Positions 2,377-61,577 of a stretch of DNA of 64,000 nt are shown piece after piece. The notes under the pieces are model-generated. The model was given only the letters and a program-made list of their open reading frames with translations, was not told where the DNA came from and searched no databases. Each line of letters opens with the position of its first letter. The stretch's first letter is position 1. This DNA comes from Heterodontus francisci (taxonomy: Eukaryota). The stretch lies in contig NC_090404.1 of the NCBI RefSeq assembly GCF_036365525.1, forward strand, positions 7,874,001-7,938,000, read 5' to 3'. The position numbers and the translations under genes were made by a program.

Positions 2377-2763
2377 CACAGTGATACCGTTCTCAGTCAT
2401 GCCGGTACAAGAACTACCGACACCTCAACCTGCTGGTCGTACATCACCAGACAGTCGGCGCTGCCCAGTTATTCCAGGGATTGTAGATCAATAAATAATA
2501 TTCCATGTTTTACATTCCCTGTCGGTTCAAACTGTTCCTTGTGAGACTCTGAGCTCTTCATAACATAGCCCAGGAACACGGGCCGGAGGTGGACCCTTCA
2601 TAGAACGGGAGAAAAATGTCAAAGACAATAGAAAGGATGAAATTACAATAACCTTAAACCACCTTGCAGTGATAATAACATCAAACCTACAATTCAGGAT
2701 TCGTTCCCTTGGAGTTTATATTTTAACTGTATGGAGGTATTTGTTCAGGTCTCATCCACTGTG

Positions 2764-2779
2764 ACGTTCCATAAGTAAT
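2764..2779 (-). CDS. NAR-TCR D segment (cassette 1), ATTACTTATGGAACGT, with 12/12 RSS
   Basis: Plus strand: ggtatttgt (2736-2744), 12 nt, cactgtg (2757-2763), D, cacagtg (2780-2786), 12 nt, acaaaatcc (2799-2807). Confidence 0.9.
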
Positions 2780-3159
2780 CACAGTGTTTCAAGTCAACAC
2801 AAAATCCCCCGGTACTTGGTGAGATGTGGGGATATTATTTAAACGCCGAGAACTGCGATTTCCGGATCCAGCTGTTAGATCAGGATCCCATCTGGTGTCA
2901 GGGGCTTCTCAATGGGATCAGTCATTCCCAATCTCCATTCACTGACACCAATCCCGGGAAAGACATCAACATTCGCACATTCCCGGCATTTATAAAACTC
3001 AAGATGTTAACGGCAATAATCCAATCTCATTATAAACTAGACTGTGGAGCAGACGGTGCGAGGCGGAACTGCGTGGATTAACTGTGCTTTTTCATTTGTT
3101 TCTGTGATAATCTGCAGTCAGAGATTTTGTACCGCGGGAAGCCGAGGCCCATCACTGTG

Positions 3160-3644
3160 TGTCCTTGTAATATCTGTACTCAGCTTTACAGTAATAGGTG
3201 GTCGTGTCTCCAACTCTCACATCTGGAATTTTCAGAGAAAATGTCTTTTTCGCCTTATTCACCGACACAACAAATCGCCCTCCACTGGAGATCCGCTCCC
3301 ACTGCGTCCCGGTCTGAGTTTGTCTGAAAAAATGCCCATTTAGGAAATCATAACGCCAAAAACCACCAGAGTAAACACAGTTGATGGTGAGAGACTGACA
3401 CTCCTTCCTGGTCACCGCTGTCGGGTTCTGTGTCACTGACTGACTGAAAGAGCCTGGAAATTAAACAGAGAGAGTTTAATGGGCCATCAGGGCCGAACCA
3501 CACAACGAGGCTAAAACCCGAGACAGTGTCTGGAATTCGGATGGACTCGGGCAGCTTCATATTAAATCCACACAATGTCGGTTTGTTTGATCGGTACTCA
3601 CGGGGTAAACAGACACACAGGGTGAAAACAAGGAGGATTCCCAT
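3160..3644 (-). CDS. NAR-TCR V segment with leader (cassette 1): leader 3602-3644, V exon 3160-3453
   Basis: Leader MGILLVFTLCVCLP then C|gtgagt. V: QSVTQNPTAVTRKECQSLTINC...FFRQ...TYYCKAEYRYYKD, with IgNAR-like short CDR2 region and FR1 Cys (KECQ). RSS heptamer 3153-3159, 22-nt spacer, nonamer 3122-3130. Confidence 0.93.
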
Positions 3645-17732: not shown

Positions 17733-18012
17733 TCACTTGACCTGTAAAAGAGGGATAAGAGAATGAAGCAGAGATTTCGTGGTCTGGGACATTTATCTCA
17801 GAGTTTATTTCATCTACGAAACTTTTAGAGATTAGTTCAACAGCTTCAGTCAACTTGAAGTGTGAGTGGATTGAATCTTCTCACCTTCACCAGAGTGACG
17901 GCAGCACTGTAGAAAATACTCAGGAAGAACAGGATGATGAATGTGGAAGCGGTTGACCAGATGTTGCCGCTCTCTTCCTCATTGTCTTCAATCCAGATGT
18001 GGTCTGATGAAT
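17733..18012 (-). CDS. IGHM: IgM transmembrane exons TM1 (17885-18012) and TM2 (17733-17741)
   Basis: DSSDHIWIEDNEEESGNIWSTASTFIILFFLSIFYSAAVTLVK|VK-stop, with the CART motif and canonical GT/AG sites. Confidence 0.92.
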
Positions 18013-20548: not shown

Positions 20549-20940
20549 TCATTGACATGAATTGACAGTGTCCAACAGAGCAAGGGAAATGTTCATAAAA
20601 CTCGGTTTACCACTGGATTTATTAACTGTTCTGTTGATGATCTTCAAGGGGATCGCTTCATGTCCCACCACACAGGAGTAAGAAGCGCCGCTGGCCCACT
20701 CCTCCGCTGCAATGGATAACAGGCTGTAGATGAAGTAGGAGCTATTGTCGTTCTCCGCCATCACCTCGGTGTTCTTGTAGTTTCCGGGATTCACCGACTT
20801 GTCATTGACGGTCCACTTGATGAAGATCTCCCGGGGGGAGAAACCTCTCACTAAGCAGGTGAGGGAGAGGAACTTCTGAACGGAGACGTCTTCTGCCGGG
20901 GACAGAAGGACAGACACGGATGGTTCCCGCAGATTTTTAA
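20549..20940 (-). CDS. IGHM: IgM CH4 with secretory tailpiece
   Basis: [13 protein letters not shown]...[10 protein letters not shown]...[11 protein letters not shown]...[24 protein letters not shown]-stop. Internal donor G|gtaaac at 20611/20610 for TM splicing. AATAAA at 20507-20520. Confidence 0.95.
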
Positions 20941-21439: not shown

Positions 21440-21748
21440 CTTCTTCCTTGTGGATGGAATCTCTGAGAGGAGTCGGCAGATCCTGATGGCTCACCACACT
21501 GTAGAACTCAACCCCACTCAGCCAGGATTGTGTCGAGATGTTTACAGTGCTGATCACACTGTCGGGATCCTCTCCGGGTTGGATGGCAACTTCTGATTTC
21601 AAAGGCTTCTTTTCTTGTGTCCAGGCCACGTTGACTCCATAAGGAGCATTAGACACGACGCAGGTTAAGGTCACCGTCGTCTCCAGTAAGACCTGTTCTA
21701 TTGATGGTGGCAGTAGTTTAATTACTGGGTCACTGCAAGGGGAACGAT
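21440..21748 (-). CDS. IGHM: IgM CH3 (second canonical Cys replaced by Ser)
   Basis: [34 protein letters not shown]...W...[23 protein letters not shown], phase-1 splice sites. Confidence 0.93.
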
Positions 21749-23155: not shown

Positions 23156-23473
23156 CCTGAGATCCGGTGATGTTTCGGCTTTGGGTGACCCCTTGATGGG
23201 AGACCTGGCAGTTATAGACTGTGTTGGTGAACCATTCCTCAGTGGGGACTGTCAGCCGGCTGGTCGCTGAGTAGGTACCGTTCACTTCACAGGCGGGAGA
23301 GGTGACGAAGCCCGAATCCATGGGTTGTCCATCCTTCAACCAACTCACGGTTATTGACTCTGGATGGAAATCGATGATTGAACACACGACAGTTGCAAAT
23401 CTGCTGCTTGTGATTTCTTCACTGGAACTCTGGGTGAGGATAACAGTTGGATGGACGATGTCACTTCTACCAT
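23156..23473 (-). CDS. IGHM: IgM CH2
   Basis: [49 protein letters not shown]...[20 protein letters not shown], phase-1 splice sites. Confidence 0.95.
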
Positions 23474-23685: not shown

Positions 23686-23985
23686 CTGGAATTTCTTTGA
23701 TCCAGAGCGACTCTCCGCGTCGAACCTCGCAGTAGATTTTGCTGCTTCCCACCTCTGACTCGGTGATGGTTAACAGGCTGCTCAGGGTGTAGGTTCCCTT
23801 CTTGTTCAGCACTGACGGGTAAGTCTTCACTCCAGTGGTGATCGGCTCTTTATCTTTCTTCCAGGAAACGCTGGTGATTTCGGGGATGTAGTCCATCGCC
23901 AAACAGCCATAGGTCACGGAGCCACCGGTGTTGGGTTGTTCACAGGAGGAGATCAGGGCATAGAGGGTGGGGGGAGACGGTGTCT
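23686..23985 (-). CDS. IGHM: IgM CH1
   Basis: [45 protein letters not shown]...[17 protein letters not shown]. The light-chain-bonding SSC cysteine is retained. Confidence 0.95.
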
Positions 23986-30400: not shown

Positions 30401-32035
30401 TTGACTGCCAGCGACTTCTACCTCTCAGAAAAAACGTTCAAGATTATATGAGTGATAATTATCTCGCTATCCAACAACTATCCAAAGACATTGAATGAAG
30501 AACGTGGTTTCGGCTGCACACAAAGAATGTAATAACCAGACATTGACAAACTGCAATTGACAACTCCTATGTAAGATATACGTAAATTCAAACTGTCCTT
30601 CTTCTGTTTTAATCAGGGATACAACAATTCATTCAAAACCGATCATCAAATCGAACACAGCGGTAGAATCGATATGTTCTTACTGAAATCATTTCAGGCA
30701 TAATTAAAAATTGCCTCCAGCCTATAAAAATTCCCGGTCCCATTAATTTTGCGCAGGGCAGAGCAGAATTGTGAAAGGCGATTAATGAATAATGAATTGA
30801 TATGAATATTAAGGCATATTTTGGTGAATAGCGTGAGATATTGCCGCAATATAATTGCTTGAATTACATTAGCTTTAATCTCTAATCTACAAAATTGGCA
30901 CTGATGTAGTTTGCAATTGCAGCAACATTTCACGTACTGAATGAGCGTGGTTAACCATGGCTTCATAGTTTAATCTGCAATTATCGCTTAAATAAATAAA
31001 ACATTATAATCTCTTTTAACTTTTGTTTTACTTTCTGAAACCTGTCAATGTTCTACTGTCTTTCAAATGGTTTTAAACATGATCAGAAACCGGCAGACGC
31101 CGCTGTCACCGAGGTTAGACAATGCAGAAACGCCAAATAGTTTCACACATTGCACTTCTTCAAAGTAATCCAGACACACACTCTCCTCAGCAGGTAAACA
31201 AGCAATCACATCACTGGGGGGCTGAATCCCGCCTCAGTACGCTTCACAGAGAAGCAGCTCAATTCTACAAACCCTTTCAGCAGAATCAAATGTAAGATTG
31301 CAAAAAAAAATCTCAACACAGGATCCACAGAACCCACCTGTTTCTGAAGGAATTAATTGCTATATTTGCCAGATATATAAAATAATGGCAACAGAATTGT
31401 TCGTAGAAGAAACATGTTTAATAAATTGATATTGCATATTTTAGTAATACTGGCTGATATTACGAAATTATAATGTGAATTTATATTAAATTAAATCTGA
31501 GCGAACCTGTAAATTTGTTATTTTAGTGGTTCTTAATTACATCAAAATCGTGTTATATATGAGCGCATGCGCGCATTAAATTAATATATTACAATTTAAT
31601 TATCACAAATAAAAATAGATCAAAATACCGTGAGGTTATCTTTGATCGCTGAGGCTTTCTGCCTATAATCTTACTTCAAACATATTTAAACGCTTATTGT
31701 TTGTGTTTGATCAGAAAACCTTGAGCAACTAGATGTCACCAAGATTAAAAATTGCAGAAATTTCAAACAGCTTAAAGTACGTTAGGTATTTAAAGTAGCC
31801 CAGACACACAGTCCCATCAGCAAATAAACACCACATCAAATCAATCAGGCGCTGAATCCCTCAAATTAAATTCTCTAATCCCGTTGCAGCAAATGAAATG
31901 AAACCATTGCAACAAATCTCAATGGGGAATCCAGTGAAACCACATTTCAGTGAAGGAATGTATCATTAACATAAGCAGAAATATAAAATAAAAACACAAA
32001 TAAACCAGTTGCTGAATGAGTTTATGTTTTTTTAC

Positions 32036-32110
32036 CTGCAGTCACCGTCACCATGGTCCCTTGTCCCCAGAACTCATGATAGTACGAACTATCCATACCC
32101 ACGAGAATAC
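32036..32110 (-). CDS. Germline-fused IgH D(-D)-J segment with a single 5' 12-RSS
   Basis: GT ATT CTC GTG GGT ATG GAT AGT TCG TAC TAT CAT GAG TTC TGG GGA CAA GGG ACC ATG GTG ACG GTG ACT GCA G|gtaaa = ILVGMDSSYYHEFWGQGTMVTVTA. Heptamer 32111-32117, 12-nt spacer, nonamer acaaatact 32130-32138. Confidence 0.85.
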
Positions 32111-32289
32111 CACAGTGACACGAACCCGTACAAATACTGCACTCAGTCTCTGTCCAGTACTGTCTCTCAACATTCACTTCAAATAGAAATTCCCTTCTGA
32201 TCCAGCACAGAATATATCCAAAAGTTTACACCATTCAGTAGGAAGCGAACACAGATCCAAGTAACTCCCTACAAGTAACAGTCACATTG

Positions 32290-32500
32290 AAACCAACATT
32301 TGTTGCAGCGCGGAAGAAGGCCATTCGGCCCATCGTGTCGGCACTGGCTCTCTGAAAGAGCAATTCCCTCAGTCCCAGTCCCTGCCTTAGCCCCATATCC
32401 TTGCACATTCTTCCTTTCCATAGAACTATGAATGCTTCAATTGAACCTGCCTCCACTACTTTCTCAGGCAGCGCATTCCAGATCTTAACCACTCGCTGCA
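32290..32500 (-). mobile_element. CR1 3'-end fragment between VH and D-J
   Basis: QRVVKIWNALPEKVVEAGSIEAF followed by the CR1 3' UTR (atgggccgaatggcc). Confidence 0.75.
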
Positions 32501-32749
32501 ATTACTGACACTGTTAACATAAATATCAGCACGGCCAAAATTACTCATCAATACTTCGGTCAGTGTCTTAGATTTGCACCATTGAATTTTCACTGTGTTA
32601 GTTTAGTACCAGACGGGAGAAGGTCTGGTTCTGAACACTACTGTTAATATGGTATTTAGCAAGTACTGACCGTCAGGTTATAATAGAATATCTCGAATTC
32701 CCCCATGATCTGTTCTTGTGCGGGTCCAGCCCTGGTTTCTCTCGCTGTG

Positions 32750-33230
32750 GGACTCCAAAACAGTAATAGATGGCGGTGTCTTCTGTCTTCAGGTTCTTCA
32801 TGTCCAAAGCGAAGGTGTTGTTTGAAGTGTCTTTGGATGCGGTAAATCGATTTTGAATCCCTGGTGCGTAAGCATCTCTGGATGAACTATAGTAATAAAC
32901 TAACCACTCCAGCCCCTGCCCGGGAACCTGTCGGACCCAATACATATTGAAGCTGCCTAGACTGAACCCGCTGGTTTTACAGGTCAGTTTCAGGGCGCCT
33001 CCGGGTCTCCCGGTCTCTGCCTCTGGCTGAGTCAACACGGCATCCGAATGGACACCTGTCAAAAATATCAAAAAACCCGAGGATTAATCCTGGTGAAATG
33101 ATTCCTGACTCTGTAACATTCCAGAGAGAGAGTCTAACACTGAGACAGTAACAGTGAGAGAATCAGGCAATAAAAACTACTCACGGGATAAGAAAACCAG
33201 CAACAGACTGAGAGAAATCGCCGACCTCAT
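32750..33230 (-). CDS. IgM VH segment with leader: leader 33185-33230, V exon 32750-33055
   Basis: [67 protein letters not shown]...[14 protein letters not shown] cacagcg (32743-32749), 23-nt spacer, acaagaaca (32711-32719). TATTTAAA at about 33322-33329. Confidence 0.95.
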
Positions 33231-49097: not shown

Positions 49098-49578
49098 ATG
49101 GGAATCCTCCTTGTTTTCACCCTGTGTGTCTGTTTACCCCGTGAGTACCGATCAAACAAACCGATATTGTGTGGATTTAATATAAAACTGCCCGAGTCCA
49201 TCCGAATTATAGACACTGTCTCGGGTTTTCGCTCGTTGTGTGGTTCAGCTCTGATGGCTCATTAAACTCTTTCTGTTTAATTTCCAGGCTCTTTCAGTCA
49301 GTCAGTGACACAGACCCCGGCAACGGTGAGCAAGAAGGAATGTCAGTCTCTCACCATCACCTGTGTTTACAATGGTGGTTTTTGGGCTCGTCCTTTAAAC
49401 AGGGGAGATTTTTTCAGACAAACTCAGCCAGGGACAAAGCGGGAGCGGATCTCCAGCGGAGGCCGATTTGTTGTATCGATGAATAAGGCAGAAAAGACAT
49501 TTTCTCTGGAAATTGAGGATGTGAGAGTTAAAGACACCGCCACCTATTACTGTAAAGCTGAGTACAGGTACAAGAACA
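49098..49578 (+). CDS. NAR-TCR V segment with leader (cassette 2): leader 49098-49140, V exon 49288-49578
   Basis: MGILLVFTLCVCLP; QSVTQTPATVSKKECQSLTITCVYNGGFWARPLNRGDFFRQ...TYYCKAEYRYKN. RSS cacagtg (49579-49585), 22-nt spacer, acaaaaact (49608-49616). Confidence 0.93.
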
Positions 49579-49968
49579 CACAGTGATAGGCCTCGGCTTC
49601 CCGCGTTACAAAAACTCACTGCAGATTATCACAGAAACAAATGAAAAAACGGAGTTCATCTGCCCTTCAACCCTGCAGTTCCGCCTCGCACCATCTCCCC
49701 CCACAGTCTAGTTTATAATGAGATTGGATTATTTCCGTTAACATCGTGAGTTTTATAAATGCCGGGTGTGTGCGGATGGTGATGTGATTCCCGGGATTGG
49801 TGCCAGTGAATGGCGATTGGAAATGACTGACACGAGTTCCAAATTCTTAACACCAGAAGGGATCCTGATCCAACAGCGAGAACCAGGAACCACAGTCCCT
49901 GCCGTTTAACTAATATCCCCACATGTCACCAAGTACCGAAGGTATTGACGCCGACTTGAAGCACAGTG

Positions 49969-49982
49969 TTGACAGGGCTGGC
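49969..49982 (+). CDS. NAR-TCR D segment (cassette 2), TTGACAGGGCTGGC, with divergent 12/12 RSS
   Basis: ggtattgac, 12 nt, cacagtg (49962-49968), D, cacgatg (49983-49989), 12 nt, ccaaatatc. Positionally homologous to the cassette-1 D. Confidence 0.75.
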
Positions 49983-50372
49983 CACGATGGCAGAGACTTG
50001 ACCAAATATCTCTGTACAATTAAAATCGAAACTCCTCGGGACAGGATCCTGAATTGTAGATTTGATATTATTATCGCTGTAATCTCGTTTAATGTCATTG
50101 TAATTTCCACCTTTCTGTTATTTTTCTTTGACATTTTTTCCGTTTATATGAAGATATCATCTCCGGCCCGTGTTCCTGGGCGATTTTACTAAGAGCTCGG
50201 AGTCTCACCAAGAACAGTTTGAATCGACGGAGAATGTAAAACATGGAATATCATTTATTGAAATAAAACTCCTGGAATAATTGGACAGCGTCGACTGTCT
50301 GTTGAAGTGTGGCCGGCAGATTGAGGTGTCGGTCGTTCTTGCACTGAGCTGACTGAGAGCGGTGTCACTGTG

Positions 50373-50424
50373 GTGTATTATGATTCTGTGGATGGATCCG
50401 GGACGGTGGTGACTGTGACAGCCG
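50373..50424 (+). CDS. NAR-TCR J segment (cassette 2)
   Basis: VYYDSVDGSGTVVTVTA then G|gtaagt. RSS cgttcttgc (50334-50342), 23-nt spacer, cactgtg (50366-50372). Confidence 0.92.
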
Positions 50425-50959
50425 GTAAGTGACTCCAATCCCATTCAGGCAGTCCCTGTCAATGCTTACCGTCACTTTATTATTGTGATCAGTACTGCTT
50501 CAATCCCCTTCGAACTAAAACAGAACGGTTTCCGATGAAACCTATCCATTGCAGTTTTCGATTGGGGAACAGAATATGAACAGGGAGTCGGTTCCAGTAC
50601 TGAGTCCGGGGTGAGTAGATGTGAAACCCCCACAGAGCAGACAGTCTGGCCCGAGTAGGTGTGACCCCATCTGGATCAGCATTGGTTTCAGGGGCATGTC
50701 GGGGCATTCCACCATCATTCCGGACTCTCTCCCGCACTGCTAATTGGTTTAAATGAACTCAGATTGTCCACACTGCGACCCCGCTCTCGCGGTTACAGGC
50801 GACTGTCTCTGCAACACAGGAGCGGGGTCACAGAGCTCTCTCCTGGGCAGACGATTGCAGTCGCAGCCAGGCAATGCCAACACTACACTACAGAGGCCGG
50901 TCTGATAGCTGCAGCAGCAGGAAAACGGCAGCATGACAAAGCAGGTTTCAAGTACAAGA

Positions 50960-59054: not shown

Positions 59055-59727
59055 CGGTTTCTGTCTCCACAGATGCTGCCTGGCCTGCTGAGTATTTCCA
59101 GCATTTCTTGTTTTTATTTCAGATTTCCAGCATCTGCAGTATTTTGATTTTATTTTAGTGTTTAATTCACTGCCACTTCTCTTCCAGGAATGCCTACCTT
59201 GAAGAAGTTCCGCTCTTCTCTCCGGCCTCTGTACTGTAGTGTTCACTCTCACACTATTCACATTGCCCGGCACAGACTGCAATCTTCTGCCCAGGAGAGA
59301 GCTCTGTGATGCTGCTCATGTGCTCACAAGGACAGTCACATGTAACAGCGGGAGCGGGAGCGGGGTCGGGGTGTCGACAAACTGAGCTCATTTCAACCAA
59401 TTAGGAGTGAGGGAGAGAAAGTCCGGGATGTTAATAGGATGCACGACATGCCCGTTAAAGCAATGTTGATCCAGATGGGGTCAAACCTACCCTGGCCAGA
59501 CTGCCTTCTTTGTGGATGTCTCACGTCTTCTCACTCCGGACTCACTCCCTGACCCGACTCCCGGTTCATATTCTGCTCCCCAATCTAAAACTGCAATAGA
59601 AATGCTCCAATGGAAACCGCTGTGTTTCAGTTTGAAGGGGATTGAAGTGATATTGATCACAATGATAAAGTGACGATAGATATTATCCGGGTCTGTCTGC
59701 AACACGTCGGGGTTTGGAGTCACTTAG

Positions 59728-61577
59728 CGGATGAGACAATCACCACTGTATCGGATCCATCCACAGCACCAGATCGACGCACAGTGTCACCGCTCCCAGT
59801 CAGGCCGGTACAAGAACTACCGACACCTCAATCTGCCGGCCACACATCACCAGACGCTGCCCAGTTCTTCCAGGGGGTTTCCATCAATAAACAATATTTC
59901 ATATTTCACAGTACCTGTCGGTTCAAACTGTTCTTTATAAGACTCTGAGTTTCTTAGTGAAATGGCCCAGGACCACAGGCCGGAGATGGGTGCCTCATAT
60001 AAACAGGGAAACATGTCAGAAGAAGGAGATTACAATTAAATTAAACCAAGTACAGAGATAATAACATCAACCCTGCAATTCAGCACCGAGACCGGGAACT
60101 TATATTTAACTTGTACAGTGGTATTTGTTCAGGTCTCTTCCACTGTGACCTCCCCAAAAACACAGTATTTCAAATCAACAGAAAATCCACCGGTACTTGG
60201 TGAGATGTGGGGTTATCAGTCAAACTGCGGGTCTGTGGTTCCCGATTCCTACTGATAGATCAGGATCCTGTCCGGTGTTAGGGATTTGTAACTGGGATCA
60301 GTCATTCCCAATCGCCATTCACTGACACCAATCCCGGGAAAGACATCACCATCTGCACACACTCGGCATTTATAAAACTCAAGATCTGAAGGGCAATAAT
60401 CCAATCTCATTATAAACTATGATGCTACCTTCCACGACAGAGCTTCTGATATGTCTTCCTTTCTCCTCAACTGAGAATTCACCACACTGTGGTTGACAGG
60501 GTCCTCAACCGTGTCCGGCCTATTTCCCGCACCTCTACCCTCACCCCCTTCCCCTCCCTCCCAGAACAGGGTTCCCCTTATCCTCACCTTCCACCCCACC
60601 AGCCTCCACAGCCAAAGGATCATCCTCCACCACTTCCGCCACCTCTAGCGTGATGCCACTACAAAACGCATCTTCCGCTCCCTTCCCCTGTCAGCATTAC
60701 GTAGGAATCGTTCCCTCCGTGACAACCTCGTCCACTCCTCCATTACGCCCACCACCTCGTCCCCTTCTCATGGCACATTGCCCTGCAATCGCAGGAGGTA
60801 TAACACCTGCCCATTTACCTCCTCTCTCCTCACTATCCAAGGCCTCAAACACTCCTTTCAGGTGAAGCAGCGATTTACTTGTACTTTCAATTTAGTGTAC
60901 TGTATTCACTGCTCACAATGTAGTCTCTACATTTGGGAGAGCAAACGCAGACTGGGTGACCATTTTGCGGAACACCTCCGCTCAGTCCGTAAGCATGACC
61001 CCGAGCTTCCGGTTGCTTGGCATTTCAACACCCCCCGCTTTTTAATTTTTGTCTGTGATGATCTGCAGAGAGTTTATGTACCACGGGAGGCCGAGACCCA
61101 TCACTGTGTGTTTCTGTAGTACTCAGCTTTACAGTCATAGGTGGCGGTGTCTTCAACTCTCACATCCCGAATTTCCAGCGAAAATGTCTTTTTTGCCTGA
61201 TTCGTCCTCATAATAAATCGTCCTCCGCTGGAGATCTGCTCCCGCTCTCTCCCGATCTGGGTTTGTCTGAAGAAATGGCCACTCTTTAAATAATAAGCAT
61301 AACCATATAAAACACAGGTGATGGTGAGAGACTGACACTCCTTCCTGGTCACCGCTGCCGGGGTCTGTGTCACTGACTGAAAGAGACTGGACATTAAACA
61401 GAGAGAGTTTAATGGGCCATCAGAGCCGAACCATACAACGAGGTTAAAACCCGAGACAGTGACTGTAATTCGGATGGACTCGGGCAGCTTTATATTAAAT
61501 CCACACAATGTCGGTTTGTTTGATCGGTACTCACGGGGTAAATAGACACACAGGGTGAAAACAAGGAGGATTCCCAT
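59728..61577 (-). pseudogene. NAR-TCR L-V-D-J cassette 3 (pseudogene): leader 61535-61577, V 61109-61386, D 60148-60160, J 59728-59779
   Basis: The V lacks one TCAG unit after the acceptor, giving CAG TGA in the spliced frame, and has YDC for YYC. The J donor is mutated (G|ctaagt) and J reads GSDT for GSGT. The D 5' heptamer is cacagta. A Penelope fragment sits between V and D. RSS remain recognisable (V 22-nt, D 12/12, J 23-nt spacers). Confidence 0.88.
60419..61040 (+). mobile_element. Penelope-like fragment inserted between V and D of cassette 3
   Basis: FQVKQRFTCTFNLVYCIHC...ESKRRLGDHF. Absent from the homologous V-D spacers of cassettes 1 and 2. Confidence 0.85.

Follow-up and report, generated by a model that had tools for sequence, protein, structure and literature searches.

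Germline-joined immunoglobulin heavy chain clusters have been described in the horn shark and the little skate. The forms VDD-J, VD-DJ, and VDJ are given in PMC2193153 (summarising Kokubu et al. 1988), which also cites an inversion between D1 and D2 with hybrid joints. Germline joining is attributed to RAG in PMC2193156 and PMC2193153. A free V beside a fused DDJ is described in PMC2435157 as a somatic intermediate (2R) of the nurse shark, rare in Group 2 and prominent in Group 5.

The IgM cluster described here has a free V and a fused D1-D2-J in a genome assembly. It lies in a 64,000-nucleotide stretch of Heterodontus francisci DNA, referred to here as the window. Our main reading, at a probability of about 0.75, is a V / D1D2J cluster that was probably joined by RAG in the germline, has a single rearrangement step left, and is possibly now decaying. 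D1, D2, and J would have been fused by two deletional RAG joins in a germ cell or early embryo, with the V 23-RSS and the D1 5' 12-RSS kept. The features of the cluster are listed in Table 1.

Table 1. Features of the window cluster (positions are those of the window).
Feature	Position	Strand	Remarks
Leader exon	33185..33230	-	46 nt; ATG, donor, and upstream promoter/TATA region align with unjoined paralogues
IgM VH exon	32750..33055	-	open
V 3' RSS	32711..32749	-	23-nt spacer
Repeat insertion, about 185 nt	32312..32496		in the V-D1 interval; missing from 4 of 4 aligned paralogues
D1 5' RSS	32111..32138	-	12-nt spacer; shares heptamer and nonamer with unjoined clusters
D1-derived 14 nt	32097..32110	-	first G gone, 3' end untrimmed; 3 mismatches to nearest D1
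D1-J junction	32084..32096	-	1 possible P base, 7-nt putative D2 core, 3 probable N bases, 2 possible P bases
JH	32036..32083	-	start untrimmed; WGQG motif; GT donor
Cmu1 exon	23686..23985	-	open
Cmu2 exon	23156..23473	-	open; Gly in place of the N-terminal Cys found in most paralogues
Cmu3 exon	21440..21748	-	open; Ser in place of the second canonical Cys
Cmu4 exon and secretory tail	20549..20940	-	open
Transmembrane exon 1	17885..18012	-	open
Transmembrane exon 2	17733..17741	-	VK-stop

The VH is of the shark IgM type. In protein searches, its best matches among Triakis, Chiloscyllium, and horn shark entries are 77-79% identical (a Triakis IgM at 77%, a horn shark VH at 79%). Its 3' end reads C-F-G-V (10 nt past the Cys) instead of the usual C-A-R-D and differs from all 32 others examined, and its heptamer-nonamer pair is common to two other loci of 33. 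About 572 nt of intervening DNA lie between the V RSS and the 12-spacer RSS. The latter is separated by 41 nt (32110-32070) from the W codon at 32069, and the J donor is at 32035. This donor lacks a +5G, a state found in 2 of 41 donors. An RSS scan bears out the earlier note, which had described a single RSS with a 12-nt spacer 41 nt before WGQG; no J 23-RSS and no free D was found between the V and J of the window cluster. A heptamer look-alike with a 24-nt spacer (32597-32558) was considered as a D remnant and rejected. It occurs at the same position in unjoined paralogues, inside the V-D1 interval.

The 41-nt stretch reads ILVGMDSSYYHEF in the J frame, and the remaining two frames reach stops within the exon. 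The earlier note had made much of this open frame. The frame is open, but its weight was overrated, since nine codons without a stop are expected by chance at about 0.65 and the V-D join sets the frame.

The paralogues of the cluster were collected from the same genome. A DNA search found 81 matches, which all fall within 3.6-13.8 Mb of a single contig, and about 52 copies came from a Cmu3 search. The census used here has 50 VH loci, 47 classified by script and 3 of a divergent VH family classified by eye, and covers a part of the clusters. The unjoined state, V23 / 12-D1-22 / 12-D2-12 / 23-J, is present in 24 of the 50, and the expected normal IgM state of V-D1-D2-J with RSS-bounded segments is borne out. 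The other 26 are products of RAG type. These comprise ten VDD-J, four VDDJ, and two V-DDJ loci (the window cluster and L013), single cases of VD-D-J, V-DD-J, V-D-DJ, and VD-DJ, two inversions, and four truncated V genes that end in a signal joint. Every one of the seven deletional states open to a four-segment cluster occurs in the genome. Beyond deletions, hybrid joints are present, and an inversion has kept its signal joint. All four VDDJ loci are in frame.

One VDD junction is found at four separate loci. It is identical in L039, L040, and L106, and is 8 nt shorter in L104. Its presence at four loci means that it was copied after joining, which requires inheritance.

Several paralogues show further rearrangement. 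L021 (G000:C34:4.25 Mb) is an inversional join, in which the D1 5' RSS and the J RSS form a perfect signal joint and the inverted D1 is joined to J. In L086 (G000:C34:12.958 Mb) the D1-D2 interval is inverted and the RSS are swapped (hybrid joints), resembling the case cited in PMC2193153. Seven of the 24 unjoined clusters (G000:C34) have a D2 that lacks 3-6 nt at the 5' end, with an intact RSS next to it. Together with the frequent 10-nt V ends (9 of 33 loci), this shortening suggests that open-and-shut joints are common in the germline here.

The fused stretch was compared with the unjoined paralogues. The V-D1 interval can be aligned up to the D1 heptamer, with the exception of the repeat insertion, and the alignment picks up again at 32083, the first J base. 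The segments are fused, with no trace of the four inner RSS or of the two inner intervals. The D1 part was matched against the D1 of the 24 unjoined clusters, and the nearest has 3 mismatches over 14 nt. A random 14-mer falls within 4 mismatches of any D1, a looser cut-off than the 3 observed, with a probability of 0.0017. For the last 14 nt of the stretch, the closest of 35 J starts has 2 mismatches, and the chance of this is 5e-5. In the D2 core, 6 of 7 positions agree with a D2 allele.

Under the 12/23 rule, a deletional join of D1 (22-RSS) to J (23-RSS) is impossible without the 12-D2-12 segment. A D2 is therefore expected in the junction, as the bridge between D1 and J. The earlier note had derived the fused stretch from D1, D2, and J. 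Its D1 assignment holds against the 24 unjoined segments. The D2 assignment is carried by the position of the core and by the 12/23 rule, but less by the letters themselves, since some D2 5-mer occurs in 13 random nt with a probability of 0.13. The possible P bases lie at the two untrimmed ends, 1 nt after D1 (chance 1/4) and 2 nt before J (1/16). Trimming, P bases, and N bases would all be present in the junction if these labels are right, and the P bases are so short that they give modest support to RAG. The comparison with the paralogues settles that the 12-RSS is the D1 5' signal and that the 41 nt are D1 and a D2 core with probable N/P additions, followed by the untrimmed J start.

The same alignment bears on the reading that the long J and its 12-RSS are an ancestral state resembling a light chain, in which no D was involved. 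The single 12/23 pair, with nothing beyond it, would be expected of such a gene. The 12-RSS and the DNA upstream of it are homologous to the D1 5' signal, however, and parts derived from D1 and from J can be made out. Nor do the paralogues normally carry a long J with a 12-RSS, a finding that would have refuted the earlier note; 24 of them have a separate D1, D2, and 23-RSS J. The paralogue alignment refutes this reading, and it is given hardly any credence.

The fused junction is single-copy in the genome, allowing up to 2 mismatches. No unjoined twin with the same flanks was found in the assembly, where the next-best match is 87%. A short-read DNA run agrees without differences with 30698-32061 and 32471-32932 at a depth of about 2.9, and the junction is outside these listed pieces. 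All of the sequencing runs compared are from one sample, which is possibly that of the assembly itself.

A V-DDJ is also a real somatic intermediate, prominent in Group 5 thymocytes of the nurse shark according to PMC2435157, and the assembly could have captured one from the lymphocytes of the animal. That the pieces listed include no short-read contig over the junction is compatible with such a capture. A clonal junction would, however, make up a small minority of the reads from bulk DNA, the assembly is without an unjoined version of the locus, and the joined junctions duplicated across loci mean that germline joining is real in this genome. Somatic capture is thus very improbable. Because there is no unjoined twin and because the VDD junction at four loci is inherited, a germline origin is favoured, and the DDJ join very probably arose there. 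Most likely it came about by chance, through RAG activity that recurs in the germline at this locus, and is not a dedicated design.

The second V-DDJ cluster, L013, has a 47-nt DDJ with N regions unlike those of the window cluster. Its V groups with the window V in the V tree (95/93), and trees of the V-D1 interval and of the J intron do not settle the relation of the two. Both clusters have the 10-nt V end, and in both the D1 is missing its first G. On either side of the D2 core, the two junctions have different lengths. From these comparisons, two separate joining events are favoured over a common origin, and the preference falls short of proof. Blunt V-DDJ joins would be in frame in both clusters (51 and 57 nt). 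It is conceivable, but unlikely, that the two clusters are a retained class of one-step IgM genes giving antibodies with a long, half-fixed CDR3 early in life. If so, RAG may have opened and re-closed the germline V and D1 ends, or may have re-split a fully joined gene. Worth recording separately is that the usual Cmu2 acceptor AG is AC in L013 / L042 (G000:C34:13.79-13.81 Mb), with another AG in frame 9 nt downstream.

A legal 12/23 RSS pair remains in the window cluster. In a lymphocyte, this pair would join V to DDJ in one step, which fits the 12/23 rule. Only the front of the resulting CDR3 would vary, and up to 13 residues after it would be fixed. If V and DDJ were joined untrimmed, the frame would be kept and 17 residues would separate the Cys from the Trp. 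All eight exons are without stops or frameshifts, with Cmu1-4, the secretory tail, and both transmembrane exons open, and the splice sites (AG/GT borders) and promoter are retained. Counted against the column-majority letters, the C exons have 22 changes in 302 synonymous sites and 32 in 997 non-synonymous sites, for a pN/pS of 0.44 (p=0.003). This is inside the paralogues' pooled range of 0.27-0.57. The gene was under purifying selection through much of its history, and it may now be decaying.

The pair of canonical cysteines looked for in every C domain is broken at Cmu3. The residue that is Ser here is a Cys in all 30 other copies examined (of about 52) and in all six public IgM chains that have the domain. 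The N-terminal Cys of Cmu2 is lost as well, as it is in 2 other copies among the 10 aligned there. The join may then be real in the germline and the cluster nonetheless a silent or non-productive relic, which may recombine but whose chain folds poorly and contributes nothing. The Cmu3 domain without its intradomain disulfide partner, a loss seen in 0 of the 30 others, the missing Cmu2 cysteine, the odd V end, and the repeat inserted in the V-D1 interval all point this way. Joined horn shark H genes were reportedly not found expressed (PMC2193156). Against this stand the eight exons free of stops and frameshifts, the retained splice sites and promoter, and a pN/pS within the range of the paralogues. 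The relic reading is plausible at somewhat below even odds. As far as the sequence goes, a working one-step gene and a decaying relic are about evenly placed.

Sequencing runs and protein entries were also searched for products of the cluster. The V-to-DDJ joint is absent among the 15 of 70 joints listed from three RNA-like, IgM-rich runs, which are swamped by paralogues. None of these runs is recorded as RNA, and they were compared at 96% likeness. Per-site allele depths were uninformative, as sites where most paralogues share the window's letter likewise showed none. Eight V-J junctions are listed with a CDR3 of 6-13 residues, in a table limited to inserts of up to 40 letters, which biases the contrast in length. 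The window CDR3 is absent from the 10 of 40 shark VH protein matches listed (best 79% identity).

The window cluster is interleaved with TCR-like V genes and with units that we take to be NARTCR-like. On the minus strand at 1-1650, two NARTCR-like V exons lie in tandem, both fully joined and sharing one junction; one of them has an internal stop. These are the joined exons that the earlier note had counted as the other join. An unjoined V-D-J unit with the same J is present at 2377-3460. Two other NARTCR-like V-D-J units were identified, one at 49281-50430 with degenerate D signals, and one at 59650-61200 with a repeat inserted between its V and D and a Tyr-Asp-Cys end.

Elsewhere on the contig (L024-L027 / L108-L111, G000:C34:6.699-6.731 Mb, also L112), the D1 12-RSS of a VH is fused heptamer-to-heptamer to a 23-RSS. 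The L024-L027 copies are four in number and stand in inverted pairs, and the fourfold copy could be an assembly artefact. They were considered as V-DDJ and rejected, being signal joints without a J. Past the joint, 474 nt match the 3' flank of a TCR-like V (C34:6856004-6856304) at 95% identity. From this match, L024-L027 look like the signal joint of a germline trans-rearrangement of a TCR V to an IgM D1. No coding joint of the TCR-like V to an IgM D1 was found in the 5 of 5 V copies.

PMC12227049 describes a linkage between IgH clusters and TCR alpha/delta, with V exons in the space between them, and frequent VH-to-D-delta trans-rearrangement in sharks. The free VH of the window could accordingly serve mainly as a donor for joining to TCR delta D segments, irrespective of the state of its own DDJ and Cmu. 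Such a role is suggested by the interleaving of the cluster with TCR-like and NARTCR-like V genes, by how common these trans-rearrangements are, and by the signal joint of an IgM D1 12-RSS with the 23-RSS of a TCR-like V. A legal partner for the VH lies about 573 nt away in its own cluster, however, together with a J and Cmu, and most rearrangement stays inside one cluster (PMC2435157). A mainly donor role is therefore rather doubtful, though donation to D-delta may be an additional use of this V, and one-step joining to the fused DDJ of its own cluster remains the preferred reading.

If the gene is expressed, its heavy chain would require a single recombination in place of three, and it would then be possible to test directly whether partly joined genes reach expression ahead of others in neonates. 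If it is silent, it is one more relic. The cluster and its neighbours show every possible partial V(D)J product in one shark genome, and these products, the inversions, and the TCR-like V signal joint would be fossils of RAG activity outside lymphocytes.

V-DDJ is missing from the germline-joined forms listed in the accessible parts of PMC2193153, PMC5192425, and PMC4279169, and the window cluster extends the forms listed there. A literature search for a germline V-DDJ gave only the somatic case of PMC2435157; its scope lay outside the 1988-1990 originals and most subscription papers, and it is no proof that the form is unpublished. The earlier note had called a V with a fused DDJ a less commonly reported form; it is less special than the note supposed, as the genome itself holds a second V-DDJ and every other partial form.

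The joined clusters of the horn shark and little skate share with the window cluster the fused coding segments, the removed RSS, and the unjoined sister clusters alongside. They differ in form, being VDD-J, VD-DJ, and VDJ, whereas the window cluster has a free V and a fused D1-D2-J. The nurse shark IgM 2R V-DDJ is identical in configuration; it is somatic and found in thymocytes, whereas the window V-DDJ is in the assembly and likely inherited. The NS4 light chains (PMC2193156) have RAG-like joints, P bases, and trimming, as the window cluster appears to have. NS4 is a fully joined VJ with little N addition, whereas the window cluster has two joins, probable N bases, and one step left. The nurse shark IgM1gj (PMC5192425 and PMC4279169) is likewise a germline-joined IgM with a fixed CDR3, of which the window cluster has a part only. 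IgM1gj is fully VDJ-joined, lacks Cmu2, and is expressed in neonates; neither the full join nor the loss of Cmu2 is found in the window cluster, which keeps its V RSS and an intact Cmu2 and is known from sequence. The window cluster is an uncommon form of the known shark germline-joining phenomenon.
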